A stretch of 64,000 nucleotides of DNA from a virus. The position numbers were made by a program, and so were the translations under genes. Positions 600-64,000 of this stretch are shown here, one piece after another; the stretch's first letter is position 1; each line of letters opens with the position of its first letter. The notes under the pieces are model-generated. The model saw nothing but the letters and a program-made list of their open reading frames with translations. It was not told the DNA's origin and searched no databases. The stretch lies in IMG/VR virus record IMGVR_UViG_3300014039_000004, one strand, 5' to 3'.

Positions 600-616
600 T
601 TCTTCTACAGGGGAGG
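600..616 (+). repeat. 17-nt motif, forward: TTCTTCTACAGGGGAGG
   Basis: Intergenic, between 88..534 and 664..1731. Confidence 0.85.
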
Positions 617-663
617 TAGTCAAGATAAAGAAAACTTATATCAAGACTACCTATAATATAAAA

Positions 664-1731
664 CTAAGCACTAGCTAAAGAATAAGCATCTATTAATGCT
701 TTATTCATAGCTCTATTAGCTCCCCCGTAAAGAAGTGAATCTACTCGTTTTTCACCACTCATATCTACTACATTAGAATAATAACCTGTTATAGCATTAT
801 ATGCTCCCCAAGCAGTATTTCTAATATCATGTTGACCTATTCCATCATGATAATAAGAAAAAATCTTGTTAATAGTATTTATTTTACGAGAACTAATATT
901 AGTTACTTCTTTAATTGTATAGTCATTTAATAATAGTCTTTCATATCCTCGTTTACTATCATAAGCATTTAAATCTTCAATTTCTTTGTTAGTAAGTTGT
1001 GTATTAGCAATATATTTCATTACAGCTTCATCACTCATACCAATACATAAAAGACTATTATATAATTGTTCTGTATTTTTAGCATATTCACAGGCTATTC
1101 TTAATATTTGAGCACCACTTTCAAGTTTTTCTTTAGCTCCCACAGTATGCTTAATTCTGATATAAGCATCAGCTCCTTTTAAAGCACTATTAAGCATGTT
1201 TGTACAAATAACTCTTATAGGAGTAAACAAAATATTAATAGATGTACTTCCATCATGACTACTACCAAATACAAGATAGTTATCTATTTTATCTTTACCT
1301 ACAATAGTTTCTGTTGGAAGTTTAGCACTAATAAATATTTTATGTCCATGACCAAAATATCCAGCAGTATCCCAAACAGCTTTATCTTTTCCAATAGCAT
1401 CATTAAAGAAAGCAAAAGCATCTCTATTTTGAACTACTTCATATTTATCTTTAACAATACCTAAAGGAATATTATAATCTGTTCTATATGTAGCATAAGC
1501 ATTATCACAATCTCGATAAATATTACCTTTATAGGCAAAACTATCTTTATTATTAACATCATTATTACCTTTTATATTAAAAGGCATTTTAGCTACAAGA
1601 TTACACTTTTGAACATTAAAATTAAGACCTGCTGCTTCAATAGCTTCTTGTGCAGTAGTACATTTAGAAACATCTTTTCCTATACCACTTCTCCAAGGAA
1701 GTCCTTTAACATTATACTCCATATTGTTCAA
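664..1731 (-). CDS. DUF932-like phage/plasmid protein, function unknown
   Basis: 355 aa. N-terminal GLPWRSGIGKDV...TAQEAIEAAGLNFNVQK resembles the DUF932/TIGR03299 family from memory; not searched. Confidence 0.4.
   Translation of the reverse strand: MNNMEYNVKGLPWRSGIGKDVSKCTTAQEAIEAAGLNFNVQKCNLVAKMPFNIKGNNDVNNKDSFAYKGNIYRDCDNAYATYRTDYNIPLGIVKDKYEVVQNRDAFAFFNDAIGKDKAVWDTAGYFGHGHKIFISAKLPTETIVGKDKIDNYLVFGSSHDGSTSINILFTPIRVICTNMLNSALKGADAYIRIKHTVGAKEKLESGAQILRIACEYAKNTEQLYNSLLCIGMSDEAVMKYIANTQLTNKEIEDLNAYDSKRGYERLLLNDYTIKEVTNISSRKINTINKIFSYYHDGIGQHDIRNTAWGAYNAITGYYSNVVDMSGEKRVDSLLYGGANRAMNKALIDAYSLASA
719..735 (-). repeat. 17-nt motif, reverse, 1-nt deletion variant (GCTCCCCCGTAAAGAAG on the plus strand)
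   Basis: Inside 664..1731, translated as LLYGGAN. Confidence 0.55.
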
Positions 1732-5017: not shown

Positions 5018-5449
5018 TTATTCATCTATAATATTATCGTTAGTCATTTTCTTGAAAATACTTTCAAAAGCATCAACTTCATCATCAATAGTAGGTTGAA
5101 GAGCACCAAATGTTGTAGGATAACTTTTAAGAAGATTATGAAATTTCCATAGTCTCATATCATTACTATCACATTTAGCTATAAGTTCAAGTAATAAAAA
5201 ACTAACAAGTTCTACATTATCATCAAATTGTTTTAATTCATCTTTAGTAAGTTTATCCATAGCACATACTCTAAAGTATTTACTAGTCCAAACTATACTA
5301 TTCCATTCACGTTTTTCAGTAAAAGGTATTTTAACTTTAGCATCATTATGTTCATGAATCATTTTTGCAACAAGTTTACCTAAAGCACAAGCACCTACAA
5401 TAAGAGTATTAGTGAATTGATTAAGATGTTCTAATTTATTTATACACAT
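5018..5449 (-). CDS. hypothetical protein
   Basis: 143-aa ORF. Its ATG (5449) directly abuts a copy of the dispersed 17-nt motif (5450-5466). Confidence 0.6.
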   Translation of the reverse strand: MCINKLEHLNQFTNTLIVGACALGKLVAKMIHEHNDAKVKIPFTEKREWNSIVWTSKYFRVCAMDKLTKDELKQFDDNVELVSFLLLELIAKCDSNDMRLWKFHNLLKSYPTTFGALQPTIDDEVDAFESIFKKMTNDNIIDE

Positions 5450-5466
5450 TTCTTCTACAGGGGAGC
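5450..5466 (+). repeat. 17-nt motif, forward: TTCTTCTACAGGGGAGC
   Basis: Intergenic. Abuts the start codon of 5018..5449. Confidence 0.85.
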
Positions 5467-5473: not shown

Positions 5474-5827
5474 TTAAACATCTAAATAATAAACAGTACT
5501 ATCTGTATTATCTTCAATTAACTTAATATTGATATTTATAGGTTTAGTAATATTTTTAAGAGTAGTATATTTCCATATACTTCTTACATTAATATTAAAT
5601 CTACCAAAATTATCAATATTAGTAAGTTTACAAGATTTATTGATACATTTATCTGTAAATATTAAATAATAATTTGTAGTATCATTATCTTTATTATATC
5701 TTTTACCAATATAATAATATTTACGTGTATTAAATTCTCTACTAAATAAACGATATTTACTAGGATAAATCCAAGTTTTAGTTTTATCTATTTTTTCATT
5801 TACTACATCATATAATATTAGATTCAT
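5474..5827 (-). CDS. hypothetical protein
   Basis: ORF 5474..5902 trimmed to the internal ATG at 5827 (MNLILYDVVNEK...), which lies just after the ligase stop (5829). Confidence 0.55.
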   Translation of the reverse strand: MNLILYDVVNEKIDKTKTWIYPSKYRLFSREFNTRKYYYIGKRYNKDNDTTNYYLIFTDKCINKSCKLTNIDNFGRFNINVRSIWKYTTLKNITKPININIKLIEDNTDSTVYYLDV

Positions 5828-5828
5828 A

Positions 5829-7028
5829 TTAAATTTTAATATTAATTCCTTTAGCATGAAATGGTACTTGTTTAATACCACTTCGTTCTCTATATTCAAC
5901 AAACATTAAATGACCAATATAAACTTCTTTATTTTTTAAAATATTTTCTTGATAATCTTGAGGTTTATTAAGAGTACATTCAAATGTTTCATCATTAATA
6001 TCATTTTTTAGAACAAATTTAGGAAGATGACTTCTTTTAATACCTTCAGGAATTATATCAATAATAGTAAAATAACCATCTGCAATCTTTTTAAATTTAA
6101 GCATTGCATTATTACGTTTTCCACCAAATTGATAAGAAGTATTTTCTTCTCTAATAACAAGTCCTTCAAATCCTAAAGCAATATTAATGTCTCTTACTTC
6201 TATAGCTTTATCAATATTACTAATATAACTTTGAGGTAAAAGAACAAATTGTTTCTTATTATTAAGATGTTCTTCTTTAGTATTAAATTTACCTAAATAA
6301 TCACTAAAAGAATATTCAAGTTTAGTATATCTAGCTATAGCAGACATACCTTCAATAACTAAATCATAACACCAAAATTGAAGTTGATAATGTTGAGGAA
6401 GTTCTATATTTTTAATAAAACTATTAATATCATTAATATTATAACCTGGAAGATATAATTCTCCATCAAGAGCTACATTTTCATCTATCATCATAATAAG
6501 TAAATCTCTTGGTATTTTTGGAAGAATATAATTATCAAGATATGAAAGTTTATTAGTCCAATCAATTCCAGTTCTACTACGATAATTTAATATTATTTTA
6601 TTAAATAAATCATTAGTTTTAGTAGCAGTAATTAGACATCGTTCACCATTAATTTTCCATTCTCCAAAATAATTACCTCTAAGAAAAGGTTTATTATTTT
6701 CAAGAGTTTTACAAAGCATTGGTATAAATGCTCCATTATTATCTGTATTATATTTAGGAAGATAAGTATCAAGATAACTTAGTAATCCTTTTTCATAATT
6801 TAAATAATCAGGAGCATTATCATATAAATCACTTATAGCTTTATATCCTTCTCTTCGTTTAGCAGCTATTAAAGATGTAACTTCATCTGTAATAGGTCTA
6901 TTAGTATAAATAGTTTCTGTATGTCCTACTCTACCAACAAGACCATAAGTAACTTCTATAATCAAACCTGTTGTATTTATTTTCCAAAAGATAGGTTGTC
7001 CTTTAGCATTACGTTTAAATAATTCCAT
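5829..7028 (-). CDS. ATP-dependent DNA ligase
   Basis: 399 aa. Adenylation motif EWKINGERCLI (K-x-[DN]-G-x-R) and motifs GFEGLVIRE and AMLKFKK. Confidence 0.85.
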   Translation of the reverse strand: MELFKRNAKGQPIFWKINTTGLIIEVTYGLVGRVGHTETIYTNRPITDEVTSLIAAKRREGYKAISDLYDNAPDYLNYEKGLLSYLDTYLPKYNTDNNGAFIPMLCKTLENNKPFLRGNYFGEWKINGERCLITATKTNDLFNKIILNYRSRTGIDWTNKLSYLDNYILPKIPRDLLIMMIDENVALDGELYLPGYNINDINSFIKNIELPQHYQLQFWCYDLVIEGMSAIARYTKLEYSFSDYLGKFNTKEEHLNNKKQFVLLPQSYISNIDKAIEVRDINIALGFEGLVIREENTSYQFGGKRNNAMLKFKKIADGYFTIIDIIPEGIKRSHLPKFVLKNDINDETFECTLNKPQDYQENILKNKEVYIGHLMFVEYRERSGIKQVPFHAKGINIKI

Positions 7029-7527: not shown

Positions 7528-7994
7528 ATTACTTTTCTAAACAATACTATACGTTCAGGTTTACCTAAACATCCATGAGCAAATTGAGCAACTATAGCAG
7601 GATTCCAAGTTTCAGTCCAACCACATCGTCTTTCAGTAGAAGTACATGTATGTTCTTTATAATTATAACCATTACGAATATGTATACCACTAAATCCTGT
7701 TAAGTAATCTAAAAAATCAAAATCTTCAATATCATACATATCATCACTTCCAGTATTAAAATCTACTTGTCCATAACAATAAGTATTATTAAGATTTATA
7801 CTAAAATTTTGATTACCTCTTATTACATCAAGTTGTTTATTAGCATCAAGAAGTTTTTCCTCTTCTTTACTAATATAAGTCATATATAATAAAACAGTTT
7901 TTCTATTAGGTTCTTTATGACTACTAAGTAAATGGTAATCCTTCATAATAGGCATTGGTATCTGAAATGCCTGTTTTGTATTTAAGTTCAACAT
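7524..7994 (-). CDS. hypothetical protein (start uncertain)
   Basis: 156-aa ORF. The first ~23 codons overlap the primase 3' end, so the true start may be an internal Met. Confidence 0.5.
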   Translation of the reverse strand: MLNLNTKQAFQIPMPIMKDYHLLSSHKEPNRKTVLLYMTYISKEEEKLLDANKQLDVIRGNQNFSINLNNTYCYGQVDFNTGSDDMYDIEDFDFLDYLTGFSGIHIRNGYNYKEHTCTSTERRCGWTETWNPAIVAQFAHGCLGKPERIVLFRKVI

Positions 7995-9138
7995 ATCTTA
8001 TAGTTTCTTTAATAAATTGATTAATTTCATTAATAGAATACTTATCGTGTAAATCAGCAAAATCTTTACAATCGTAATTATAAAGACCTAATTCACCACG
8101 AGTAATAAATATGTATGGTATATTATAAGTTTCTTTTAAATATTTAGCACCATTTCTACCTGTATTATCAAAATCAAGTAAACTTAATATTATACCATTA
8201 TCTTTAAGTTTATTTTTAAGCCATTGATATTCATTATCTTTAAGTTTATAATTTTCACTAGGAAGATTGATAATACCAATATTTAGTTTAGTATTAGCTC
8301 CCCCGTAGAAGAATATTTGACTTAAATGACTACCAATACTTAGTCTATCTTTTGTACTTTTTGTTATAAGAATATAATCATAATTATCAAGTTCTAAATT
8401 AAGAAGTCCTTCTAAAACATTTGCATTAGTTACAAATTTAAGTTCAAGACTTCTATTACGTAAAGGAAAATATAGTTTAATAAGATAAATACCTGTTCTA
8501 GTTTGACCTAACATATAAGCATAACACGGGTCTTTAGCTTTATAATAATATTTTGGTTTACTATTAACACTTCTATCTATATAATATTGGTCTACAGGTA
8601 TTACAAAATGAGTATTAAGATAATTAAGAGAAATGTTCCATCTGTTCCATATTCTTTTATCATCTTTATTCCAACTACGAGGTACTATTTCAATAATAGG
8701 CCTACGTTGTTTTGCTATTTTAATAGCACCTTTAATTAGTTCTGTTACATTTTCATCTGTTTCTTTATTATCAATAATATTACTAAAAGTATGAGCTATA
8801 TGTTTTAGAATAAAATAAAAATCTTGTTTATTATTAGGTTCTATTTTTCTACCATAAGCTAATGATAATACATAAGCTACAGTACCATAAACATCTTCAA
8901 AGAAACCAAAACCTCCAAAATCTCTAACTTTTAATCTACCTTTAGCATTATACTGAATACCCATACTTTTATTAGTATCATCATCCCTAAATACAGAATT
9001 AATAAGATGATTATTTTCAATACAATCTTTTACTATTTCAATAGGAATATCAAGATACTTACTTACTATTAATTCTTGTGAAACTTTAGATTCAATATAA
9101 TCTTTAGTAAGATTTGTAGTATAAGGATTACGCTTCAT
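7924..9138 (-). CDS. DNA primase, DnaG/TOPRIM-like
   Basis: TOPRIM-like acidic motif LLDFDNTGRNGAKYL near the C-terminus. Position upstream of the replication genes. Start set to MKRNPYTT (ATG 9138). Confidence 0.55.
   Translation of the reverse strand: MKRNPYTTNLTKDYIESKVSQELIVSKYLDIPIEIVKDCIENNHLINSVFRDDDTNKSMGIQYNAKGRLKVRDFGGFGFFEDVYGTVAYVLSLAYGRKIEPNNKQDFYFILKHIAHTFSNIIDNKETDENVTELIKGAIKIAKQRRPIIEIVPRSWNKDDKRIWNRWNISLNYLNTHFVIPVDQYYIDRSVNSKPKYYYKAKDPCYAYMLGQTRTGIYLIKLYFPLRNRSLELKFVTNANVLEGLLNLELDNYDYILITKSTKDRLSIGSHLSQIFFYGGANTKLNIGIINLPSENYKLKDNEYQWLKNKLKDNGIILSLLDFDNTGRNGAKYLKETYNIPYIFITRGELGLYNYDCKDFADLHDKYSINEINQFIKETIRYVELKYKTGISDTNAYYEGLPFT
8297..8313 (-). repeat. 17-nt motif, reverse (GCTCCCCCGTAGAAGAA on the plus strand)
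   Basis: Inside the primase gene, translated as FFYGGAN. Confidence 0.85.
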
Positions 9139-9228
9139 AAGAAGATAGCATAAAAAAAAGGAGTTAGTATTACAAGTAACACTAACTCCACGAAACAAAA
9201 CAATAATCTATTTTCTACTAATAAAAAT

Positions 9229-12143: not shown

Positions 12144-13553
12144 TTAATCTGCAACACTAAAATCAAAATTATTTTCACTAAAATTATCTTTTTCTACTAT
12201 TACATGATTTTTATCTATATCTTTATTATCTAACAATTTTTCTTCTGTTGTGCTTTTACAATATATAGTATATAATACTATTTTATTATTTAAATACCTT
12301 ATATTAGATAAACGATACAAATAATTTTTTATATCTCCACATTGAGGAGAAGTTATAATAACAATATCTACATTGCCTCTAAGTTTTTTATCAGGTGCAT
12401 TACCTGTACTAAGTACATTAATAACACCTTTATTAAACAATAATTCATTATTAGTTCGTTGAGCTTGTGCTTTTAATATTTTAGGTTCACCTTTGTGTTC
12501 TCCATTTTTATAAGTTAAAAGTTGACCATTAATATCTACAGCATAAGCAGGTTCAATTTTATCATGATAATTACCACATATTATTTTTCCTTCTTGTTTA
12601 TTAATATAATCTGTAACATTATTTGCAAAATCACTTCTTTTATTTATAATAAGAATATTTTTATTTTTATTTTCTTTAACTATATTATAAATACTTCCAA
12701 GTTTAAGTTTATAATCTGATAAAAGAATTGCTCTATTATGAATAATTTCATAAGTTTTAGAAGCTCTTTCTTTTATATTACTAGGATTATAAAGATTATC
12801 AAGTTGCATATTAAATGAACTAGACATATCAAGATGTTCATTCCATCCATTTTCTTTAGCAAGTTGATTACAAATTTGAATTGCACTTATATTAAGTTTT
12901 GTATTACCTATTCTGGCTTCATCAATTTTATCAAATCCACCAAAAATAGCAATACTAGTAGAAATATAATTATTATAATATTCAAGAAGTTTAGCATCTT
13001 CAGAATTTGGTTCAATAGTTACACCAATTCTAGTTTCTTCTACGGGGGTGCTCAATCGAACTAACTCTAATTCATTAGCTTTAAATTCATCTAAAAGTGG
13101 ACAAAGTTTATAAAGTTCAATATTATCTTCTTTATTTTTAAGAAATTTATTAAGAATAGTAAGTTTAAATTTACTACTTTCATAAAAACATCTTAAATGT
13201 TTAAAAGGACTAGTAATATGATAAGCAATAAATAAAGTAGGAATACTAACAGGATGTTTAATAATAAAATCTTGTGTTACAATACTAATATGTTTACTTT
13301 TAAATAAATCTTTAAATTTATTATTAATATCTTCATCTTCTTGATGAGTTAAAAACTCCATAATACTAATTCTTTCATCAAAACTAAAAGTACATATTAG
13401 AGTTTTACAACTATTAGAATTTTGATATATTCTATTTAATATACCAGATATAAGATATTTATCATTAATAGTATTTGGTATAATAGCACTTCCTACACCT
13501 TTATTTTGTCTCCATCGTTCGATAGCTTTATCAAATAAATTATGTAAGTTCAT
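12144..13553 (-). CDS. hypothetical protein, possibly a degenerate SF2 helicase-like ATPase
   Basis: 469 aa. No clean Walker A seen. Location in the replication module only. Confidence 0.3.
   Translation of the reverse strand: MNLHNLFDKAIERWRQNKGVGSAIIPNTINDKYLISGILNRIYQNSNSCKTLICTFSFDERISIMEFLTHQEDEDINNKFKDLFKSKHISIVTQDFIIKHPVSIPTLFIAYHITSPFKHLRCFYESSKFKLTILNKFLKNKEDNIELYKLCPLLDEFKANELELVRLSTPVEETRIGVTIEPNSEDAKLLEYYNNYISTSIAIFGGFDKIDEARIGNTKLNISAIQICNQLAKENGWNEHLDMSSSFNMQLDNLYNPSNIKERASKTYEIIHNRAILLSDYKLKLGSIYNIVKENKNKNILIINKRSDFANNVTDYINKQEGKIICGNYHDKIEPAYAVDINGQLLTYKNGEHKGEPKILKAQAQRTNNELLFNKGVINVLSTGNAPDKKLRGNVDIVIITSPQCGDIKNYLYRLSNIRYLNNKIVLYTIYCKSTTEEKLLDNKDIDKNHVIVEKDNFSENNFDFSVAD
13035..13051 (+). 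repeat. 17-nt motif, forward variant: TTCTTCTACGGGGGTGC
   Basis: Inside 12144..13553, antisense to the gene. The gene reads STPVEE. Confidence 0.75.
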
Positions 13554-15881: not shown

Positions 15882-16426
15882 AGTCTAAGAATATTATATT
15901 GTGTAAAATCATTATAAGTAATACTATTATACCATTTTCTAAGATAAGTTTTAAATACTTCAAATTTATTATTATCAGTATATTTAACAAGAGGAGAATA
16001 ATTAATAGAATAAATTCTACCATTATGGGAAATACAAAGATTATTAAGATTATCTTTTATATCACAATTAAGAAATCTTCTACCTGCATCACCTAATAAT
16101 AATATATGTTTAAATTGATATTTATTTATATCATTATTAAAATGATATAAACATCTATTATAAATATCATTATTAAGTTCACAAGCAATAGTTTCATTAC
16201 AGCGAATAAAAGGTAAAATATATAAGTCTGTTACCTCCCCCGTAGAAGAAATAACAGACTTAATAATCTCTACTTGATTACTATATCCAATATTACCTTT
16301 TTTATAAGCATTATAATCTACATTAGGTATTACAATACATTTACCTAAATAAGGATTACCAATACCTTGTAAATTATAATGCTTAGTATTAAAAAGTCTC
16401 ATTGGACATTCTTTACAAACATCCAT
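15878..16426 (-). CDS. uracil-DNA glycosylase-like protein (family 4-like)
   Basis: 182 aa. N-terminal CKECPMRL, and INYSPLV resembling the H-P-S-P-L motif. Adjacent to PolB, as in crAss-like phages. Confidence 0.5.
   Translation of the reverse strand: MDVCKECPMRLFNTKHYNLQGIGNPYLGKCIVIPNVDYNAYKKGNIGYSNQVEIIKSVISSTGEVTDLYILPFIRCNETIACELNNDIYNRCLYHFNNDINKYQFKHILLLGDAGRRFLNCDIKDNLNNLCISHNGRIYSINYSPLVKYTDNNKFEVFKTYLRKWYNSITYNDFTQYNILRL
16234..16250 (-). repeat. 17-nt motif, reverse (CCTCCCCCGTAGAAGAA on the plus strand)
   Basis: Inside the UDG-like gene, translated as SSTGEV. Confidence 0.85.
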
Positions 16427-18938: not shown

Positions 18939-18999
18939 TTTACAACAAATTTAAAAATTAATATTAAGTTTATAAATAATAACTCTAAATAGAGTTTTG

Positions 19000-19072
19000 T
19001 CTTCTCTACGAGGCTCGAACTCGTGACCCATACATTAAAAGTGTATTGCTCTACCTACTGAGCTAAGAGAAG
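19000..19072 (-). tRNA. tRNA-Lys (anticodon UUU)
   Basis: Hand-folded 73-nt cloverleaf. Acceptor CTTCTCT/AGAGAAG, D arm GCTC-AGTAGGTA-GAGC, anticodon arm ATACA-CTTTTAA-TGTAT, T arm ACGAG-TTCGAGC-CTCGT. Confidence 0.85.
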
Positions 19073-20600: not shown

Positions 20601-20617
20601 ATCTTCTACAGGGGAGC
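20601..20617 (+). repeat. 17-nt motif, forward: ATCTTCTACAGGGGAGC
   Basis: Intergenic, 17 nt beyond the stop of 20635..21102. Confidence 0.85.
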
Positions 20618-26772: not shown

Positions 26773-26789
26773 GCTCCCCCGTAGAAGAA
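26773..26789 (-). repeat. 17-nt motif, reverse (GCTCCCCCGTAGAAGAA on the plus strand)
   Basis: In the centre of the divergent non-coding region. Confidence 0.85.
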
Positions 26790-31273: not shown

Positions 31274-31547
31274 TGTAGATTTTTCTACGGGGGAGCGAGA
31301 TTCAACTTATATATCTTATAATGATTTACGTATTGTAAATAGTAAACTTATTGAACTTGATTATACTAAACAAATTAATAATAAACTTAAAACTATAATT
31401 TATAATGATAGTATTGTTATTAATGAATATAAAGTAATGAATAATAGTTTAGTTAAATCAAATAATAAACTTAAACGTAAATCTAAAATTGGTTTTATTA
31501 CTGCTCTTGTTGCTATTATTGGACTTAGTATATCATTAATAAAATAG
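31194..31547 (+). CDS. lipobox plus C-terminal TM protein (unimolecular spanin-like)
   Basis: 117 aa. MKKWIKLQKLIMIVLLGCS (LLGC lipobox) and C-terminal IGFITALVAIIGLSISLIK. Overlaps 30983..31273 by 80 nt in another frame. Confidence 0.4.
   Translation: MKKWIKLQKLIMIVLLGCSINCLARNNVDFSTGERDSTYISYNDLRIVNSKLIELDYTKQINNKLKTIIYNDSIVINEYKVMNNSLVKSNNKLKRKSKIGFITALVAIIGLSISLIK
31280..31296 (+). repeat. 17-nt motif, forward variant: TTTTTCTACGGGGGAGC
   Basis: Inside 31194..31547, translated as DFSTGER. Confidence 0.75.
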
Positions 31548-37609: not shown

Positions 37610-38917
37610 ATGGCTTTTGAAAATATTGATTTTGAAGGAACTAATCAAAGTGTAAATACAAACACTAATGCTCCTAAAGATGAACCAGCTAATCAACAAC
37701 AAGATGCTACAGCACTTGATGGTTCACAAACACATGATGATATTACTGGTAAAGATGGTAATAATCAAGAACCTACTACAGCTCCTACTACAGAACCTGA
37801 CAATCATTCTGATAATAATGACAATCAAAATGATAATGCAGATTCTTCTACAGGGGAGCTATCAGAAGGTGATACTATTGAGTTTGATGGTGCTACTTAT
37901 ATAGTAGATAAAGATGGTAATCTTGTAGATAATAAAGGTAATATTTTTAAAGAAGCTAAAGATGTTAAATCTTGGATTGCTTCTATGGATGTTGCCGATG
38001 ATAAAAATAATGATGAACTTAATCTTACTTCTATTCAAGAGGCATTAGGTGTTATAGTAACTGATGATAAAGGTAATCCTGTAGAATTTACAAATGATGC
38101 TGAAGGTATTAAATCTTATGTTAATTCAGTTATTGATTTGAAATCTAATGATATTCGTGAAGCAACTATTAATAAGTTATTTAGTGATAATCCTCTTCTT
38201 AAAGAATTTACTGATTATGTGCAATTAACAGGAAGTCCTCAAGGTTTTGGAGATATACCTGATAGAAGTGGAATTGAAGTTGAAAAAGATAATATTATTC
38301 AACAAGAAGCTATCATTAGAATGGCTGCACAAGAATTTGGTAATAAGAGTTTTAATGAGAATTATATTAAATATCTTAAAGATAGTGGAGGTCTTTATGA
38401 TGAGGCTAAAGCTCAACTTGCAGCATTAGCTGAAAAAGATAATCAAGTTCGTCAAAATATTGAAGCTCAAGCTGCTCAACAAAGACAAGAGGAACAAGCT
38501 AGAGTTCAAGAATATTGGAATAATGTTAGTAAAGTTATCGAAGGCAGAAATATTGCAGGATATAAACTTCCTGAAAGTTTTACTAAGGAAGTTAATGGTC
38601 AGAAAGTAGTTTATACTCCTAATGATTTTTATAATTATCTAAATAAAGCAATAGAACAAGATGCTGATGGTAATATTGTTACTGGATATCAAAGAGATTT
38701 AAGTAAACTTACAGATGAAGAATATCTTAATCGTGAATTACTTGATGCTTGGCTTATGTTTACAGGAGGTACTTATAAAGATTTAGTAGACATGGCAATT
38801 AAAGAAGATAATGTTCGTAAACTTAAAATTAAATCTAAAGAACAAAGAACTGCAAAGTCTATCAAAGTAGTTAAAAAGTCAAGTGGTAAAGTTGATATGA
38901 ACGATATTATACTTTAA
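37610..38917 (+). CDS. putative scaffolding or head-assembly protein
   Basis: 435 aa. Acidic, low-complexity N-terminus and a Q/E-rich coiled coil (AQAAQQRQEEQARVQEYW). Immediately upstream of MCP. Confidence 0.3.
   Translation: MAFENIDFEGTNQSVNTNTNAPKDEPANQQQDATALDGSQTHDDITGKDGNNQEPTTAPTTEPDNHSDNNDNQNDNADSSTGELSEGDTIEFDGATYIVDKDGNLVDNKGNIFKEAKDVKSWIASMDVADDKNNDELNLTSIQEALGVIVTDDKGNPVEFTNDAEGIKSYVNSVIDLKSNDIREATINKLFSDNPLLKEFTDYVQLTGSPQGFGDIPDRSGIEVEKDNIIQQEAIIRMAAQEFGNKSFNENYIKYLKDSGGLYDEAKAQLAALAEKDNQVRQNIEAQAAQQRQEEQARVQEYWNNVSKVIEGRNIAGYKLPESFTKEVNGQKVVYTPNDFYNYLNKAIEQDADGNIVTGYQRDLSKLTDEEYLNRELLDAWLMFTGGTYKDLVDMAIKEDNVRKLKIKSKEQRTAKSIKVVKKSSGKVDMNDIIL
37843..37859 (+). repeat. 17-nt motif, forward: TTCTTCTACAGGGGAGC
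   Basis: Inside 37610..38917, translated as DSSTGEL. Confidence 0.85.
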
Positions 38918-43295: not shown

Positions 43296-43345
43296 AAGGT
43301 TCAAGATTTCTTCTACAGGGGAGGGAGAAGAAACTCTTGAACCTT
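43296..43345 (+). terminator. hairpin presenting the 17-nt motif core in its loop
   Basis: aaggttcaagatttcttc (43296-43313) pairs with gaagaaactcttgaacctt (43327-43345). Loop is tacaggggaggga. Weak T-run (aatttgttt). Confidence 0.5.
43308..43324 (+). repeat. 17-nt motif, forward: TTCTTCTACAGGGGAGG
   Basis: Intergenic, within hairpin 43296-43345. Confidence 0.85.
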
Positions 43346-48500: not shown

Positions 48501-51500
48501 TTAAATGAAACTCTTGTTTATAAAAATAGTGGTAACTGGGCTGCACAGCTTGATGTAGATAAATCTCCTACTAATGTTTATGATGAAGGTCTTAAAACTG
48601 AATATGAAATTCCTAAAGGTTTCTCCCCTGTAGAAGGAAATAGTAATCTTTGGCAAGAAACTGAAGATACTGAATTTGATAGTAATGACCCAACAGATAC
48701 TACTAATTTTTATAAATGTAATGGAGGTAATACTATTAAATTTTTTAGAAGAGCTTATAATAATGATTATCTTCATTCTCCTTGGATTAAATGTTTTAGA
48801 GGTACTATAGATGAGTTAAAGAAAGCTGTTAATCTTAATAATCAATATCAATATTGGATTTATGCTGCTAATAGTAATGCAGCTATGTTTGATTTATATA
48901 GATGGGATTATATTACAAGTAGTTGGGTTAATGCAGGTATAACTAAAGATTCCTCTACTTCTGATGGTTATGCTGTACTTAATATTTATGATCAATGTAA
49001 TCCATGGTATAATACCAAGAATGGTATAAATATTAATAAAAATGATTCTATTGAAAATATTACTGCACAGTTTATAGAAGCTCGTCTTTATAATTATGCT
49101 AATGGTAATACTATTGGTAATTCTAGTAATTATTATAATGAAGATGATTGTTGCTATGACCAAGCTTTTAGAAAAATTGCAGCACTTAGTGATAACTGGT
49201 GTAAAAATACTTATGAAAGACTTGATATTAATGGTAAAATTACTACAGATTCTGATGATAATGATACTAGTGGAGACCTTGATAATGTAGGTAAAAGTGC
49301 TAAACCTTATTGGGTTGAAGAACATGATAGATATAACTCTTCTACAGGGAAGTTCTCTAAAACAGGTGATGCTACTTATTTTAATTCTGAAACTAATGTT
49401 AGATATTGTTTACTTGAACAAGCTAGAACTGTAGCACTTAGAGATAAAGTACAAGGTATTCTTAATGCTATGCTTACTCTTTATGGAAGTCCTATTGCTG
49501 CTATGCAAAAGTATTTCTTTAATGTAAGTGATTATTTTCCTGCTAGTAGTTATAATGAACAAGCTAGACTTTGTTATGAAGATGCTTCTGTAGCTATGAA
49601 AAATGGTAAATATTCAAGTGATACTGACCCTCTTTCTCAAAGTTTAGGTAATCATTATCTTGCAGAACTTCAATATTGGACTAAACGAATGATTTATCTT
49701 AGTTCTTATAGTAGAGCTAATGATTATACTAATGCTCCTTATAAAGGTTCATTTAGTTTTCGTATTCCTAAAGCTGCTTTAATTAAATTTACTGTAACTG
49801 CTGCACAAGCCATTTATCCAGTTATTCGTTCAGAAGCTGTAATGAATAATGAAAGAACTAGATTACTCCCTGGTGAATCTTGTACTATTAGTATTCAAGG
49901 AGCAGCTGATAAAGACATTTATCTTTGTTATGTAGATTATTATAGTAATATTGGTTCTCTTGCTGATATACCTATTGCTGCTACTTCTAGACTTACATTA
50001 AATGCACAAAGACTTACATCATTTAATACTGATGGTAGTTCTAAAATATTTACTCCTGCTAATATAGTATTTAATACTCCTATATTACAAGAAATGCATC
50101 TTACTAATGTAGCTAGTTTAAATGGTGCAGTAGATTTAAATTCATGTATTGCAATTAACGATGTTAATTTAGCTGGTTCAAGTAATACTAGTGTAGTACT
50201 TCCTGAATCTTATAGTTTAACTACATTACATTTAGGTTCTAATATTAATGAACTTAATTTAACTAATTTACCAAATCTTACTACTTTTGAAATAGATGCA
50301 GTAGATAAACTTCATAGTTTAAGTTTAATTAATATTCAAAATAGTTATAATATTTTTAATAATCTTTATAATAAAGGTCTTAGAAATTTAACTACAGTTA
50401 CTATTAATAATATTAATTGGAATAATTTAAGTTTAGATTTATTTAATATTTTACTTAACGCTACTACTAGTAATATTACAGGTACTATATCTATTATAGA
50501 TATTATTGATGGAAATACTAAAGCTAAAATGCTTAATGTATGGGGTAATATAGATAATATTGATAATGCTTTATATGTAGATTATACTAAAGTTAAAACC
50601 ATTACTTGTAGTATTTCTGTTCCTTATAGAATACGAGATTTAGGTATTAATACCGAATGTAAAATTACATCAGCAGGTAATGATTTTACTTCTGTTAAAT
50701 GGGAAATAGTTTCTGATGAAACTTATGGAAATTGGTCTGATTATTGTACTATAAATAGTAAAACAGGAGCTATTACTGTATCTAAACTTTGGGAAGATGA
50801 TTTAAAATATTCTGATAATAAGATTACTATTAAATGTACTTTAAATAATAATTATAGTGGAACAGGAGAAACCATTTTGTATGAAACTGATTATTATTAT
50901 ATAGACCAAAGATATAATAATAATGATACTATAATAATAACAGGTTGGCATAATGGACAAAATGATATAATTAATTATATACAAAATAATAATAAAGCTT
51001 ATGTAGGTTTTTTTGAAAAAGAAACAAATATTTTAAAATTACAACAATTAAATGATAATGATATTACTACATTTATAGATGGTACAGATGCTACAAATTA
51101 TATTTCAAATTTAGAATATGATGTATTTATTAAACTTCCTTCTTTTTATATTAAAATAGAAGAAATAGAAACAGATTTATATAGAGTATCTTTTAGTAAA
51201 GATTATAAAGCTAATTATACTTATTTAAACAATTTACCATTAATTGCAGCTTATAATAGTGTTTATACTATAGATGGTATTGTACAAACAGCTAATATCT
51301 CGCATCCCTCAGATACTACAGGTATATTACATAGTATAATGGGTTATAATCATTTAACTAATAGTAGTACTTATACTAGTAGAAGAGGACTTAGTATATT
51401 TTCAGCTAGAAATGCTGCTAGAAATAAAGGTAAAGGTTTTAGACTTATAACTAAAGAAGTATATGATATTCTTACTTTTATTTTTTGGGGTACTTTTAAT

Positions 51501-55497: not shown

Positions 55498-55514
55498 GCT
55501 CCCCTGTAGAAGAA
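55498..55514 (-). repeat. 17-nt motif, reverse (GCTCCCCTGTAGAAGAA on the plus strand)
   Basis: In the leader, 37 nt upstream of ATG 55551. Confidence 0.85.
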
Positions 55515-55550: not shown

Positions 55551-56234
55551 ATGGCTAGTATTGCAATGCTTGTATCAGAGTTTGCACATTCTCTTAAACA
55601 GCCTAATAATAAAGCTCTTAGAGAAAATATTAAAACTCTTATTATTCATACTCGTAGTGAAATAATTCGACGAAGTTATGAAAATCATGGTTATATTGAT
55701 AAAGGATTGACACAACGATTTAAAGTTAGTTTAACTGAATTTTTAGATGGAGATGTAGAACTTCCAGATAATTATGATTGGCATGATAAAGTTAAACGTA
55801 CTGTACAAAAAGTTCCACGTCCTGTAAGATTGACTAATAATTTACCATTTGATAGAGTTAGTAGTGTAGGTTATAGAACTAATAAAGAATTTCCTTTTAT
55901 TAAAGAAACTTCTGCTAGATTTAGAAATAGTGTTCCTGGTCTTTGTAATATGCCTTGTTATGATTATATAAATGGTTATATTTATATATTTCCACCAGAA
56001 GGTAAACCATTTGTTCTTAATAATATTTGTATTGAATCTGTATTTGAACATCCAACAGAAATAGAACTTATGAATAATGAAGTTGATGGTATGAAAGTTT
56101 TGACAGATGATAATGAATGGCTTTTAAGTGAAGATATGATTGGTCAAATTAAAGATATTATTTATAAAAGAGATTTATTAAATACAATTAGAGAAACTAA
56201 TGAAATTCCAAATACTGTAAAATTTAATGGTTAA
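55551..56234 (+). CDS. hypothetical virion/tail protein
   Basis: ORF 55473..56234 trimmed to MASIAMLVSEF (ATG 55551). The extension covers a motif copy. Confidence 0.55.
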   Translation: MASIAMLVSEFAHSLKQPNNKALRENIKTLIIHTRSEIIRRSYENHGYIDKGLTQRFKVSLTEFLDGDVELPDNYDWHDKVKRTVQKVPRPVRLTNNLPFDRVSSVGYRTNKEFPFIKETSARFRNSVPGLCNMPCYDYINGYIYIFPPEGKPFVLNNICIESVFEHPTEIELMNNEVDGMKVLTDDNEWLLSEDMIGQIKDIIYKRDLLNTIRETNEIPNTVKFNG

Positions 56235-60800: not shown

Positions 60801-62163
60801 AGATTCTATGTATAAAAATACTACTAGAAAAATATATTCAGTTTATAATGAAAATGATGTTGTAAGATTTGATAATACTATTAGAAGTAGTAAATTAGAA
60901 AGTGATGAAAGTAGAATAAATGTATTCAAATTTGATCCAGATGATTATTATAATGTTCCTACAAATAGAGGTATTATAACTAATCTTAAAGGTATAGGTG
61001 ATAATATAATTGTACATACTAAAGATAGTATGTTTAAATTTACAGGAAGTAATAATCTTCAAAGTAGTACTGGAGAAATACAACCTACTGAAACAGATGT
61101 TTTTCAAACAGGTATTAGTGAAGTTTTTGGTTCAGATTTTGGATATGCTGGATTGCAAAATAAACAAAATAGCATAATAACAGAAACAGGATATATCTTT
61201 TATGATAAAGATTCTAATGTTATTTATATGTATTCTGGACAAGGTCAAATAATTAAACTTAGTGATAACATAGAACGTTTATTTAATCATGCTCCTGTTG
61301 AAGATGTAAGATTTGCTAATGACTATTATAATAATCGTATATTTATTTGTATATGGTTTAAATATAATAATGGTCTTAAACCTGTGACTCTAAGTTTTTA
61401 TCTTAATCAAAATAATAGAAATTTTATAAGTCTTCATGATTTCTATTTTACTAAAGCTTTTAATACTAAAGTTAATTGTTATTTTCTTAATAATAGAGAA
61501 ACTAATATTTGTAAAATAGATAAATCTGATTTTAATAGATATATGGGTATTACTATTGAAAATTCAGATGATATATATCCTAGAAGTGTAGAATTTGATA
61601 AAGAAGAATTTAAAATTTATAGAAATGATGGTGGAGATTATGATAATATTGAATTAGATGTAGCAAATATAGATTCTATTATAGATATTATATATAATGT
61701 AAATTACGAAACAGTTAAAACTTTAAATAGTATATCATGGTATAGTAAAATCATCAAAGATGTATTTCCTTTAGCTACTAATATGGTATATGAAAATATG
61801 GCTGAAAGTATAGATACTGATATTCCTGCTATGCAAATTATGATTTATACTGATACATGTTGTTCAGATATTATTCATGCTGATATTAAATCTAATGATT
61901 ATTCTATTAAGAATCCTAATTCATATCAATTACCTAGATATAATCAAGGTTATTGGAGTTTAAGTTATTTTAGAAATATAATTAATAATAATAATGCTTT
62001 TAAATATTTAGATAATTATAATGATGGTAGAAAAAAAGCTTCTTTTATAAATGATGAAAATTCTCTTATAGAAGGTAAATATTTTGTAGTTAGATTTATA
62101 TTTAGAGCAGGTAAAGATTTTAAACTTGAAAGTATTAATTTTAATTATTCTAATAAATTATGA
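57880..62163 (+). CDS. large virion/tail structural protein
   Basis: 1427-aa ORF in the tail module. No motif recognised. Confidence 0.5.
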   Translation: MSNIVPKLNLNKTPNLVDTNSLVFAKNIRVDIDGSLHKDYGIKPFLGIDDAGDVCDYRTIIYKILNDFDDIINDETISQNEKVITTTYKTIVENILKQINNNNPSILHIIDVIPYNDEFYCLFNAITKYTIEGKETYKTNDFIFCYKEKEDKFYPCDTAWSYHYGKIEGCILNNIVGEKILVIAEYDTDEKVPLKCINLSKASSTDDESIYTQMPIIPITNLNYSGTFNYVIPNGSYQFFIRYKIRDNFYTDWFPASKEVFTGNTNNVITNFGTLKYVNTHTDSDNSFVFNVEHLNIENTKYYKKFQIGFICSHDDTIVARAWKHFDINTQVIQFDYKTEDGEEIEVTDLTKVSYNIYNVGNVTSFKNKVYISNYEESNLNEQFQNIANKVNITIKEKSEFNGYDKWNTANTTIGNKTYITAINNIPIAYAGTEKDSIIKNLINNITSILSESTSNNQTENNYYDSSVNKTSIYGTDIRLTRDNLSTLQNNIIARLKQLGENKAVGNIKFDTDVDYISIDDKTVSTSTDSANANINKAIDVIYNTIKGINDNGTFVNNSYLTKNTFTIRIWRNYNYTVTVNNPGTIIDKEINPDISIQNIDDINNTGTAFKTITESYEQKIIINLIAYKNKISNNNVSKLTSYTTLIPFQHYKFYIHFVKNNGEITNGYYCGGDNAGEIIPEYKASCNTIIYPSFININIPDGYSACFFSIFHNAIDSATIYDVQALKNSTTVLCYEGSCLDIDLRLVPGYKNINIKYQDTILNVEGETTTTEIKDTTGDYYYSSNSTYGRYFGARGIIKINNTSPNINGLMYVTTDYEFSQIDNIKLVKCTPFINDTIFDDYNDLDLQGYICEISPLDKNRSINYYSDGSSVWKKQNIDDLNNTNNTIHISLDELGKYNDSTAKIADFDLMTTNKVYIYSNYNLNYLSLSSEPIQVNKTYYNTNSDGKITDDVTKIIIWRLLTSLTLSEVYKLDSMYKNTTRKIYSVYNENDVVRFDNTIRSSKLESDESRINVFKFDPDDYYNVPTNRGIITNLKGIGDNIIVHTKDSMFKFTGSNNLQSSTGEIQPTETDVFQTGISEVFGSDFGYAGLQNKQNSIITETGYIFYDKDSNVIYMYSGQGQIIKLSDNIERLFNHAPVEDVRFANDYYNNRIFICIWFKYNNGLKPVTLSFYLNQNNRNFISLHDFYFTKAFNTKVNCYFLNNRETNICKIDKSDFNRYMGITIENSDDIYPRSVEFDKEEFKIYRNDGGDYDNIELDVANIDSIIDIIYNVNYETVKTLNSISWYSKIIKDVFPLATNMVYENMAESIDTDIPAMQIMIYTDTCCSDIIHADIKSNDYSIKNPNSYQLPRYNQGYWSLSYFRNIINNNNAFKYLDNYNDGRKKASFINDENSLIEGKYFVVRFIFRAGKDFKLESINFNYSNKL

Positions 62164-64000
62164 GATATAAATTAAAATGTGGTGGTAAACCTCGTAGAAA
62201 AGCTTTTGCCGGAGCTGATGGTGCTATTATGGCAGCTGCAACTCTTGCTGCTTCTGCTGCTAATGTTGCAGCTCAAAATAAATCAGCTTCTACACAAGCT
62301 AAAGCTATAGAGTCTAATGCTAAAGCTCAAGCACAAGCTATTCAACAACAAACAACTAATAATAATCAATTACAAAATGAATATATTCAATTTAGTAAAG
62401 AACAAAATAAATTGATGAGAGACCAACAACAAGAAATGCAAACTACTTTACAAGAACTTGCAGGTAAAGAAAATATGAATAGTAGACTTGATGCTGGTAA
62501 AATAATTCTTAGAAATGGAGGAATTGGTAACAAACGTAGATTATCAGATTTCTTCTACAGGGGAGGTAATATGCCTTTCAGAGTTACTGATGGAGGTGGA
62601 GTTCTTCCTATTCAAACAGATAATAATGGTTATGGTCTTTATGAAATTAGAGGTAATGATCATGAACATTATCATAAAACTTCTGGTGGTAAACATAAAT
62701 CAGGAGTTGGTATTAAATTTAATGATGGTAGTGTAGTTGAAGGTGAAGGAAATCAAAATACTAATCAAGGAGAATTACTTTATGTAACTCCACAAGATGC
62801 TATGTTTATTAGTAAGCATAGCATTAGTGGTTTTAATCCTACTAAAGCAGTCCAACAAGGTATGCACCCTCAACAAGCATTTAATATTCAACAAAATATT
62901 AAAAATATGAATAGTATAGCTGATGACGGAGGTAAGCTCCCCCGTAGAAGAAGTATAGCAAGTAAAGGAGATTGGATAGATTTAGTTAATTCTCTTACTA
63001 CTAGAAAAGGTATTGCTAGAGGTATTAGAGAATTTAGTCAAGGCGTTCCTTTTATAAGTGGAAGTTTGGATCCTGTTGCTGATTATATTGAAGGACCAGA
63101 TAGACAACCTATTTATGAAATAGATGCTAATGGTAATCAACATTTTATAGGCTATGCTCCTAATAATTATAATGAAAATGCTTTATTTAGTATTTTAAGT
63201 GGACCTGGTAGTAAAATGGTTAAACCTATTAAAGCTGTTAATACTAGTAGAATGTCTGCTAAATATAAAGAAGTTATGGAATATTTAGATAAAATAAGTA
63301 ATAAACTTAAAGATACAGCTCCTACTTTGTTTGAAAATAAAGCTACTAATGTATTTAAAAATGCTGGTTCTAATTTTGGTATTAGAACTAAAATGCCTAT
63401 TGACCTTAGATATTTAGCAAAAGTTAGAAGAGGTATTAGAACAGGTGAAATAATGACACCTGAAAATGAACATATAGCACAAGCAGCTGCTGATGCAACT
63501 AAAGGTGCAACTGAGGCCGCTAGAACAATTGCAGCTAATAGTAGATTGTTACATGGACGATCTGTAACTAAGGCTAAAAAAGCTTTATCTAATATAATAC
63601 AAAAAGCTAAAAATAGACAAGAATTAAGACGTAATAAAGCTCAATGGAATGAAGCTGCAAGAGAATGGCAAGAAGCAGGAGTAACTAGTGATGCTTATAA
63701 TAGAGTAAATCCTACTATATCTAATAATACTAGAATTAGTTTAAGAACTATAGATAAAAATGCTAAAAATGCTATTCGTGGAGGATTAGGCTTATTAGGT
63801 ACAGGTGTAGGAGGATATTTACTTAATAGTGTATATAATCAAATACAAGAATCTAATAATTCTAATAATATTCCTGTTAATAATAATTTAACACATCCTT
63901 ATATTGATAGTTATAAACAATCTCAACAAATAAAACAAGATAGTATTAAAAATGATACTATTAAACAAATACAACAAACTTCTAATAATACTTCTAAAAA
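62160..64000 (+). CDS. virion protein, 5' part (open to the right edge)
   Basis: ATG 62160 overlaps the upstream stop (ATGA). Hand-translated with no stop through 64000 (MRYKLKCGGKPRRKAFAGADG...). Not in the ORF track because it is unterminated. Confidence 0.6.
   Translation, partial: MRYKLKCGGKPRRKAFAGADGAIMAAATLAASAANVAAQNKSASTQAKAIESNAKAQAQAIQQQTTNNNQLQNEYIQFSKEQNKLMRDQQQEMQTTLQELAGKENMNSRLDAGKIILRNGGIGNKRRLSDFFYRGGNMPFRVTDGGGVLPIQTDNNGYGLYEIRGNDHEHYHKTSGGKHKSGVGIKFNDGSVVEGEGNQNTNQGELLYVTPQDAMFISKHSISGFNPTKAVQQGMHPQQAFNIQQNIKNMNSIADDGGKLPRRRSIASKGDWIDLVNSLTTRKGIARGIREFSQGVPFISGSLDPVADYIEGPDRQPIYEIDANGNQHFIGYAPNNYNENALFSILSGPGSKMVKPIKAVNTSRMSAKYKEVMEYLDKISNKLKDTAPTLFENKATNVFKNAGSNFGIRTKMPIDLRYLAKVRRGIRTGEIMTPENEHIAQAAADATKGATEAARTIAANSRLLHGRSVTKAKKALSNIIQKAKNRQELRRNKAQWNEAAREWQEAGVTSDAYNRVNPTISNNTRISLRTIDKNAKNAIRGGLGLLGTGVGGYLLNSVYNQIQESNNSNNIPVNNNLTHPYIDSYKQSQQIKQDSIKNDTIKQIQQTSNNTSK
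62550..62566 (+). repeat. 17-nt motif, forward: TTCTTCTACAGGGGAGG
   Basis: Inside 62160..>64000, translated as DFFYRGGN. Confidence 0.85.
62936..62952 (-). repeat. 17-nt motif, reverse (GCTCCCCCGTAGAAGAA on the plus strand)
   Basis: Inside 62160..>64000, translated as KLPRRRS. Confidence 0.85.

Follow-up and report, generated by a model that had tools for sequence, protein, structure and literature searches.

The stretch of viral DNA analysed here (IMG/VR record IMGVR_UViG_3300014039_000004, 64,000 nucleotides, hereafter the window) was assigned by its nearest GenBank genomes to an Obtuvirinae crAss-like phage of the family Intestiviridae, and it carries 19 dispersed copies of a 17-base motif, TTCTTCTACRGGGGAG(C/G)TA, against about 0.04 expected by chance. 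The copies occupy conserved positions in related genomes, change in concert from lineage to lineage, are oriented without regard to transcription and alternate between the two strands with a regular same-strand spacing. We tentatively interpret the motif as a cis-acting DNA signal of Intestiviridae crAss-like phages, rather than an RNA or coding feature, which might be read in a strand-specific manner to direct a nick or a priming event.

Occurrence of the motif in the window

A first-pass annotation of the window, made from its sequence alone, had reported about 19 copies of a G-rich motif, far more than expected by chance. Searching the pattern TTCTTCTACRGGGGAGS with up to 3 mismatches returned 18 matches at coordinates already listed by that annotation, against 0.04 ± 0.2 in 100 dinucleotide shuffles. 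A position weight matrix (PWM) built from the strong copies returned, at 8 bits or more, exactly the 19 sites and no others, namely 17 strong copies and two degenerate ones at 719 (minus strand, 12 bits) and 49337 (plus strand, 18.1 bits). The same matrix gave 0-3 matches in each of 20 Markov simulations, all far weaker than the real copies, so that simulated sequence did not yield comparable counts. Moreover, the 11-mers of the motif were the top-ranking non-simple repeated 11-mers in the window.

Eleven copies lie on the plus strand and eight on the minus strand; eight are intergenic and 11 fall inside open reading frames (ORFs), which agrees with the partition originally proposed. The claimed extension of the identity into a TAAT flank held in part: the 3' flank is indeed conserved, with the consensus (C/G)T(A) and no strict TAAT. 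A 5' (C)ACAT is frequent among relatives. Since independent assemblies in GenBank, IMG/VR and GTDB carry the motif at matching places, the copies are not an artefact of assembly.

Lineage-specific variants in related genomes

A search of IMG/VR for exact matches to a 16-mer gave 94 loci, mostly on crAss-like contigs of about 90 kb that were 67-83% identical to the window. Five related genomes were then found to contain 15-31 copies each of lineage-specific variants sharing the core YACGGGG:

cr271_1 (Obtuvirinae, Hacihdavirus): 15-17 copies, same variant as the window
ctcc615 (Obtuvirinae, Wotdevirus): 16-22 copies, YYTTCTACGGGGGAG[CG]T
cr8_1 (Obtuvirinae, Fohxhuevirus): 27 copies, ACATACCTTTTACGGGGSGGCT
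cr3_1 (Crudevirinae, Diorhovirus): 30 copies, TTCCTYTACGGGGGAR
prototype crAssphage (Crudevirinae, Carjivirus communis): 31 copies, CCATCCTCYACGGGGRGT

In each of these genomes the motif variant supplied the top non-simple repeated 11-mers. All variants, whose length ranges from 17 to 25 nt across lineages, consist of a pyrimidine tract followed by YACGGGG. The outer positions vary between lineages and are uniform inside one genome, orthologous sites included. As orthologous sites thus change in concert with the other copies of their genome, the pattern is the one expected of, and suggests, co-evolution with a trans-acting reader rather than a recent mobile spread.

The core YACGGGG is absent from crAss001, a member of the Steigviridae that also infects Bacteroides, and phage phi14:2 showed no comparable over-represented motif; therefore, the phenomenon is not universal in Crassvirales. 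As a separate observation, crAss001 (MH675552) contains 27 exact copies of CTTCTGGAG on both strands, against about 0.4 expected by a hand estimate from base composition. Their same-strand spacing is regular and plus-strand copies are never adjacent to each other. The two motifs have CTTCT...GGAG in common, and CTTCTGGAG may be the Steigviridae counterpart of the window motif.

A 19-mer scan of GTDB (185,579 genomes, one per bacterial or archaeal species), which is a partial test of abundance in hosts as it used the 19-mer and no shorter core, returned 8 loci in total. Seven of them lie on contigs of 79-97 kb with a low GC content, which look like crAss-like genomes that were binned into metagenome-assembled genomes (MAGs), and the remaining one is a lone match on a 49%-GC cyanobacterial contig that looks like chance. 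A host repeat or a host Chi site was rejected on the basis of this result. Three motif-bearing contigs (JAFRAK010000011.1, JAGCWW010000084.1 and CABUVO010000015.1) were found in MAGs labelled Bacilli, Acholeplasmatales and Porphyromonadaceae; these labels are probably binning artefacts and not host assignments.

Relation to genes and positional conservation

The 119 copies of five genomes were divided into 34 intergenic and 85 coding ones, the latter comprising 51 sense and 34 antisense copies. Although about 70% of the copies are therefore coding, intergenic DNA is enriched about 3-4-fold, the genomes being 90-93% coding. Intergenic copies between co-directional genes were sense in 16 cases and antisense in 17, a random orientation relative to transcription that bears out the earlier argument that the motif is no simple promoter or terminator. 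In coding DNA the copies occupy each of the three sense frames and only two antisense frames, the third being unused because it reads the stop codon TAG; with two of three antisense frames possible, coding feasibility alone predicts a sense excess of about 60:40. The frame analysis counted 49 sense and 31 antisense coding copies, close to this 3:2 expectation. The peptides previously read from the coding copies of the window were recovered as claimed, namely SSTGE-type, [FL][FL]Y(R)GG, PVE[EG] and LPRRR.

Alignment of the window sites with relatives showed an intact motif within indel-rich flanks that are about 50-65% identical, whether the DNA was coding or not. Identity at orthologous coding sites was 82% in the motif columns, compared with 64% in the flanks of ±30 nt. 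The site in the SNF2-type ATPase gene (13035; antisense, ..PVEE) occupies one column, frame and strand in the window, cr271_1, ctcc615, cr3_1 and prototype crAssphage, with 94% identity in the motif and 59% in the flanks. The site in the primase gene (8297; sense, ..YGG..) likewise shares its column, frame and strand in the window, ctcc615, cr3_1 and prototype crAssphage; in cr271_1 the peptide LYGG is preserved at this place although the motif copy has diverged further. At both sites each genome has its own motif variant. Finally, nearly all of 120 homologues of the uracil-DNA glycosylase (UDG; at least 61% identity) keep STGE or a one-residue variant of it, with indels and length variation immediately beside it.

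These orthologous positions, for which the first-pass annotation had suggested looking, show that the sites are ancient and conserved across genera and subfamilies. Some copies are decayed or missing in single lineages and others are extra, which indicates a slow turnover. Because three sense and two antisense frames are used, copies also occur in non-coding DNA and the motif is more conserved than its coding flanks, the constraint acts on the nucleotide sequence and not on a shared peptide, as initially proposed. The apparent conservation of YGG in the primase, PVEE in the SNF2 protein and STGE in the UDG, all within indel-rich loops, is thus probably imposed at the DNA level.

BLAST blocks between the window and cr271_1 terminate at three motif copies; this was judged to be an alignment-seeding effect and no sign of recombination.

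Strand alternation and spacing

Neighbouring copies showed a strong preference for opposite strands. For the window, the series F,R,F,R,F,R,F,R (forward and reverse) that had been noticed across the minus-strand gene block was confirmed, and the rule was statistically supported in all six genomes. The pooled neighbour counts of the six genomes, which include sites orthologous between genomes and are not independent, were as follows:

gap below 1 kb: 30 pairs on opposite strands, 0 on the same strand
gap of 1-2.5 kb: 15 opposite, 6 same
gap of 2.5-5 kb: 43 opposite, 12 same
gap above 5 kb: 18 opposite, 16 same

Since orthologous sites make the pooled counts overstate independence, tests on the single genomes are safer. 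Strand labels were shuffled on the observed positions, using the minimum gap or the coefficient of variation (CV) of the gaps of same-strand copies as statistic, and returned a P value of 0.07 in the window and of at most 0.003 in the other five genomes (lowest <0.0002). Same-strand gaps had a minimum of 1.2-3.5 kb and were mostly of 3-9 kb, corresponding to about one copy per 6-7 kb per strand; their CV was 0.38-0.54, against about 0.95 for random placement. When both strands were considered together the gap CV was 0.67, again against 0.95, and the largest gap between any two copies was about 7 kb in four of five genomes.

The close pairs include convergent and divergent ones, some opposite-strand pairs being 29-120 bp apart, so that the rule concerns opposite strands and the convergent pairs at first suggested were not confirmed. 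In the same genomes, other exact repeats of at least 13 nt within 5 kb were mostly direct (333 direct and 86 inverted), which indicates that alternation belongs to the motif and not to these genomes generally. On the same grounds, we rejected the idea that alternation is caused solely by an avoidance of direct repeats, as no general force of this kind is apparent, although for a repeat of 17-25 nt such an avoidance retains some probability. A simple exclusion zone around same-strand copies would already yield much of the regularity.

Individual copies in the window

The 19 copies are listed below with their context and their counterparts in relatives. Plus and minus signs after a coordinate indicate the strand, and relatives designated by L and a number were aligned to the window.

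600..616, plus: TTCTTCTACAGGGGAGG, intergenic between the dUTPase gene (88-534, minus) and ORF 664-1731 (minus), 37.5 bits, followed by a hairpin at 615-651; intergenic equivalents in matching orientation at cr271_1 68765+ and ctcc615 16529+
719..734, minus: degenerate 1-nt deletion variant TTCTT-TACGGGGGAGC in ORF 664-1731, sense, LLYGGAN, 12 bits; intact motif at the corresponding place in L048 and at ctcc615 16632-
5450..5466, plus: copy in the 24-nt spacer between ORFs 5018-5449 and 5474-5902 (both minus); equivalents at cr271_1 74321+ and ctcc615 22565+
8297..8313, minus: copy in the DNA primase gene (7924-9198, minus), sense, FFYGGAN, falling between two stretches that match the primase profile
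13035..13051, plus: GGGGGTGC variant in the SNF2-type ATPase gene (12144-13553, minus), antisense, STPVEE
16234..16250, minus: copy in the uracil-DNA glycosylase gene (15878-16426, minus), sense, SSTGE, embedded in a long hairpin at 16224-16261 in the window genome; orthologues at cr271_1 86387- and ctcc615 33878-
20601..20617, plus: ATCTTC... variant, intergenic, 18 nt downstream of ORF 20635-21102 (minus); aligned at cr271_1 90832+ and in L058
21143..21159, minus: intergenic copy between ORFs 20635-21102 and 21214-21501 (both minus), opposite-strand neighbour of 20601
26773..26789, minus: copy in the non-coding region that separates the diverging minus-strand and plus-strand gene blocks; aligned in L091, L071 and L068
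27997..28013, plus: ATCTTC... variant, intergenic, 16 nt past ORF 27469-27981, forming with an imperfect inverted copy at 28036-28053 a 57-nt hairpin (-28.4 kcal/mol, z -4.8); arrangement kept at cr271_1 3520+ and ctcc615 44925+
31280..31296, plus: TTTTTC variant in the 5' part of ORF 31194-31547, 7 nt past the stop of ORF 30983-31273 and upstream of the terminase gene, read as FSTGE; aligned at cr271_1 7005+ and in L038, L016 and L091, equivalent position at ctcc615 48021+
37843..37859, plus: copy in ORF 37610-38917 (gene upstream of the major capsid gene), sense, DSSTGEL, marking the end of the low-complexity N-terminal region of the ORF; aligned at cr271_1 14927+ and in L038, L061 and L009, equivalent position at ctcc615 53963+
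43308..43324, plus: intergenic copy between ORFs 42411-43280 and 43359-43982, inside a hairpin at 43298-43343 (z -4.5); in cr271_1 the motif is decayed and the hairpin retained
48622..48638, minus: weaker copy TCCTTCTACAGGGGAGA with 2 mismatches in the 2166-aa ORF 45528-52028, antisense, SPVEG, 25.6 bits
49337..49353, plus: degenerate copy CTCTTCTACAGGGAAGT with 3 mismatches in the same 2166-aa ORF 45528-52028, sense, SSTGK, 18.1 bits
54578..54594, plus: copy in ORF 54450-54872, sense, DSSTGEL; retained by L085, L063 and L055, in decayed form in cr271_1, missing from L065, equivalent at ctcc615 69715+
55498..55514, minus: intergenic copy 41 nt upstream of ORF 55551-56234 (crAss tail ring protein 2), opposite-strand neighbour of 54578; copies in the same intergenic region at cr271_1 31904- (with an extra one at 31984+) and ctcc615 70671- and in L063 and L085
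62550..62566, plus: copy in an ORF beginning at 62160 and truncated by the window end, sense, FFYRGG; aligned at cr271_1 39076+ and in L085 and L013, the surroundings of the motif being rich in indels; the copy at ctcc615 77746+ is about as far into the matching ORF
62936..62952, minus: copy in the ORF from 62160, antisense, LPRRR, 35.2 bits, opposite-strand neighbour of 62550

Four copies (600, 16234, 27997 and 43308) thus lie within or abut stable local hairpins of the window genome (615-651, 16224-16261, 27997-28053 and 43298-43343; z -3.4 to -4.9), an association that is not general.

Proposed reading of the motif and alternative explanations

According to the interpretation that we tentatively favour, the 15-31 copies of each genome, which occupy largely fixed, ancient positions wherever they can be tolerated, such as intergenic spacers and variable protein loops, would be read by a lineage-specific, most probably phage-encoded factor. 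Strand-specific reading by an enzyme of DNA metabolism is proposed because the strands alternate, each strand is marked about every 3-9 kb and gene direction is ignored, as if a signal were needed at bounded intervals on each strand. Two candidate events may be considered. A site- and strand-specific nickase might introduce localized single-strand interruptions in both strands, by analogy with phages T5, phiKMV and tf. As an alternative, the motif could be a site-specific priming signal active on exposed single strands, which would resemble ssi or light-strand-origin signals. The crAss-like phages studied encode DNA ligase, primase, a family B polymerase and an SF1 helicase, so that enzymes for the metabolism of nicks and primers are present.

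A broader version of this interpretation, which we hold a little more loosely and regard as possible, assigns to Crassvirales a strand-specific "barcode", i.e., an alternating-strand, lineage-specific motif read by an undescribed phage enzyme that tracks single strands. It might serve for a multi-site, strand-specific start of DNA synthesis or for the discrimination between self and non-self DNA, and would differ by lineage, being of the YACGGGG type in Intestiviridae and CTTCTGGAG in crAss001.

Several points weigh against strand-specific nicking or priming. A nick, a primer and the binding of a protein are all predictions from sequence. Known primases recognize sites much shorter than 17 nt, and simultaneous nicks at the pairs 29-120 bp apart would give fragile staggered breaks. 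The regular same-strand spacing could partly derive from mutual exclusion of direct repeats and not from a need for coverage, and the pooled counts of neighbours are affected by the shared sites mentioned above. In all phage groups where localized nicks are known, the sites lie on one strand only (PMC3517423), whereas here they occupy both. Moreover, no nickase-like, HUH or other candidate reader domain was detected among about 40 window ORFs scanned with Pfam, nine motif-bearing ones of which were also scanned with PHROGs.

The domains detected in these scans were those of standard replication and nucleotide-metabolism enzymes, together with one sub-threshold helix-turn-helix. The latter belongs to a 114-aa ORF at 52487-52831 (plus strand), whose weak match to Bac_DnaA_C (E 0.002, below the Pfam cut-off) is the sole hint of a sequence-specific DNA-binding domain among the Pfam-scanned ORFs. 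PDB sequence searches with the UDG and SNF2 proteins returned no matches. The ORFs scanned yielded no repressor or integrase domain and no transposase or RAYT-like gene.

The motif might instead be a double-stranded DNA binding site, through which an architectural, partition-like or silencing-protecting phage protein covers the genome. We judge this explanation rather unlikely. The orientation of each site would be irrelevant, and inverted neighbours would arise from selection against close direct repeats, between which the encoded RecT and exonuclease (single-strand-annealing recombination) could cause deletions. The even coverage, with its largest gap of about 7 kb in most genomes and CV of 0.67, is consistent with such a protein, as are the independence from transcription, the concerted change within lineages and the presence of copies in whatever context tolerates them. 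In addition, a phage-plasmid nature has been proposed for prototype crAssphage (PMC10983915), and a phage-plasmid would require partition sites. On the other hand, the motif is asymmetric, and most proteins of this kind bind palindromes as dimers; the prevalence of direct repeats among the other short repeats argues against a general avoidance, and opposite orientation persists up to gaps of about 5 kb. In the ORFs scanned, the sub-threshold helix-turn-helix was the only trace of a DNA-binding domain, ParB-like or other.

Less probable still is a polar signal of the Chi or KOPS kind, addressed to a helicase-nuclease translocase, which would mark the phage DNA as self, halt degradation and promote recombination from breaks arriving in either direction. 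Polar signals need both orientations and a bounded spacing, and the density of about one copy per 6-7 kb per strand is compatible with this, as are the G-rich 3' half of the motif and its independence of genes. Its absence from bacterial genomes in the 19-mer scan of GTDB would allow it to mark self; a RecD/PIF1-like SF1 helicase and a Gam-like protein are encoded, and relatives are annotated with a PD-(D/E)XK exonuclease. However, known Chi and KOPS sites are 5-8 nt long, host-specified, abundant in host DNA and skewed with the direction of replication, unlike a phage-lineage-specific motif of 17-25 nt. The core is wholly absent from crAss001, likewise a Bacteroides phage, and we know of no phage enzyme regulated by a Chi-like site of its own.

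An RNA element acting in transcript processing or stability, or as a protein-binding site, was considered because the motif strand folds into a small hairpin, UUCUUC(UACG)GGGGAG, in which a UACG tetraloop closes a 6-bp stem with many G.U pairs. The fold is cleaner in cr3_1, GUUCCUC(UACG)GGGGAAC, and variation in the left arm is confined to C/U exchanges facing G residues that are invariant. One outer pair covaries (T.G to A-T in prototype crAssphage), and some intergenic copies lie just past stop codons beside terminator-like hairpins. Such hairpins next to copies showed a modest downstream enrichment in only two of five genomes. The flanks do not lengthen the motif stem, which is broken in about half of the copies of prototype crAssphage and of cr8_1; pairs 4 and 5 showed no covariation and no U-tract was evident past the motif. 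A search of the whole window against Rfam, both at the gathering threshold and at E≤5, returned no family at any copy. Antisense coding copies are conserved as well as sense ones, and intergenic copies are randomly oriented. The covarying stem-loop on the transcribed strand with a U-tract that is typical of intrinsic terminators and structured RNAs was therefore not observed. The hairpin, unproven and with an unextended, often broken stem and a single covarying pair, was not adopted, and we consider a function in RNA improbable.

A promoter or a sequence-specific terminator, for a T7-style phage RNA polymerase, the virion RNA polymerase or the host polymerase with a phage factor, is largely refuted by the orientation statistics and has very little probability left. 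It is true that the length, the copy number and the lineage-specific consensus recall T7-group promoters, that a GGGGAG-type stretch is present and that several copies lie 30-60 nt upstream of start codons. Nevertheless, the upstream, gene-oriented placement of T7-type or host-type crAss promoters was not found, and the coding majority of the copies includes many deep in essential genes. No second conserved element such as a promoter box occurs at a fixed distance within ±45 nt over 217 instances, and the Bacteroidetes -7 box seen by eye beside two copies is not a general feature. As orientation is unrelated to transcription and a second motif at fixed distance is missing, promoter, terminator and mRNA-element roles all appear very unlikely. 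The middle and late promoters described in crAss-like phages are sigma70-like and tripartite, and the early virion-polymerase transcripts of phi14:2 have no common motif (10.1101/2020.03.07.982082).

An origin from a miniature mobile element (MITE- or REP-like), whose remnants or ends would have spread through the genome, was raised by the first-pass annotation and is already contradicted and scarcely credible: the copies are dispersed in both orientations with frequent inverted pairs, but their positions are orthologous across genera and subfamilies, flanks show no similarity or duplication, similarity ends at about 19-25 nt with the information content confined to about 19 nt, copies are frame-compatible inside essential genes, the ORFs scanned lack a transposase or RAYT-like gene, and inverted neighbours enclose essential genes (e.g., part of SNF2, the polymerase and part of UDG). 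The CTAC/GTAG core, which is reminiscent of REP elements, speaks in favour of this origin; positional orthology led us to rule it out.

Genomic setting

The nearest GenBank genomes of the window are cr271_1, from pig faeces, with about 65-80% nucleotide identity over collinear blocks, and ctcc615. Genes were assigned by synteny and by PHROGs and Pfam matches; those bearing the motif include the DNA primase, the SNF2-type ATPase, the uracil-DNA glycosylase, the gene upstream of the major capsid gene and large virion proteins. The G+C content is 23-31%. At about 27 kb, at the junction of the minus-strand replication block and the plus-strand structural block, the sign of the GC skew is reversed. 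A non-coding region of about 1.2 kb (~26200-27470), in which the gene blocks diverge and the skew flips, holds copy 26773 (minus) and is a candidate replication origin or early control region.

Several further features were observed. A RAGATH-1 hammerhead ribozyme (Rfam RF03152) was detected in full length at 23030-23125 (minus) in the gene-poor early region, with 63.4 bits against a gathering threshold of 56.3. A tRNA-like Rfam match at 21951-22015 (minus; 37.3 bits) was not called by ARAGORN, and a Prevotella-2 RNA match at 22640-22735 (minus) was below threshold (35.9 bits, E 0.32). The stretch of about 21.9-23.4 kb has short ORFs only, and non-coding RNAs may occur there. The genes for tRNA-Lys(ttt) at 18999-19072 (minus) and tRNA-Leu(taa) at 19168-19252 (minus) are syntenic with the tRNA-Lys and tRNA-Leu of cr271_1. 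The family B DNA polymerase is a single intact ORF of 773 aa in the window (13560-15881). In cr271_1 (83336-86033) it is annotated as two coding sequences (CDS) with about 390 nt between them, and in cr3_1 a homing endonuclease gene separates two polymerase CDS.

Significance and comparison with known systems

No viruses of the human gut are more abundant than the crAss-like phages, and little is understood of their replication, packaging and persistence. The motif offers a testable handle on a step of their DNA metabolism and a route to its reader protein. It could also be used as a lineage-diagnostic signature for Intestiviridae contigs, including those mis-binned into bacterial MAGs, and it defines positions to respect when crAss-like phages are engineered. 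At the same time, it is a warning that conserved-looking peptides such as STGE, YGG and PVEE in crAss proteins are probably dictated by the DNA. Searches of the literature by sequence string and by topic, including Yutin 2021, Drobysheva 2020 and Schmidtke 2024, found no mention of the motif, with incomplete coverage and hence as absence of evidence only. Together with the Rfam search, this agrees with the statement of the first-pass annotation that no element of such sequence has been described, and a signal with 31 copies in prototype crAssphage appears to have gone undescribed.

Among known dispersed elements, REP/BIME sequences are short CTAC/GTAG repeats often in alternating orientation; they are extragenic imperfect palindromes with hundreds of copies at variable positions and an associated RAYT gene. 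The crAss copies differ from them, and from MITEs, in lying inside genes at orthologous positions, and no RAYT gene was found in the ORFs scanned. Chi and KOPS are G-rich polar signals that occur every few kb independently of genes and steer a DNA translocase. The crAss motif departs from them in being longer, specific to phage lineages, not found in bacterial genomes by the 19-mer scan and alternating instead of skewed. The stoperators of Cluster A mycobacteriophages (L5 gp71) are tens of asymmetric, dispersed sites of 13-14 bp read by one phage protein, and resemble the motif in being many, dispersed and asymmetric. However, they are mostly found in short intergenic regions, oriented with transcription, in temperate phages with a repressor, whereas the crAss copies are 70% coding and oriented without relation to transcription, and the ORFs scanned showed no repressor.

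The signals of the ssi/OL type (RSF1010 ssiA/ssiB, the complementary-strand origin of phage G4, mitochondrial OL) are long, strand-specific sites on opposite strands, recognized on exposed single-stranded DNA by a dedicated primase. They share with the motif a small hairpin, for which the latter has a weak potential. They differ in number, with 1-2 sites per replicon at the origin against 15-31 over about 90 kb here, and in their essential, well-paired hairpins, against a stem that is weak and often broken here.

Localized-nick motifs appear to be the only documented phage elements with a similar profile. Those of T5/BF23, phiKMV-like and tf/LUZ24-like phages have consensus sequences of 7-19 nt at several to 14 dispersed sites, and the tf/LUZ24 consensus shifts by lineage, which has been interpreted as co-evolution of nickase and site (PMC3517423). 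The crAss motif is likewise dispersed, gene-independent and shared in position among relatives, with a consensus that shifts by lineage. The T5, phiKMV and tf-type phages encode a DNA ligase, as do the crAss-like phages. Unlike the nick motifs, the crAss sites alternate between strands with a regular same-strand spacing, and the motif is longer, family-wide and so far known only at the sequence level. Since all known nick motifs are one-stranded, we did not file the crAss motif as a member of this family. If the barcode interpretation were true, the motif would represent a new class of phage cis-element and not a variant of T5-like nick sites.

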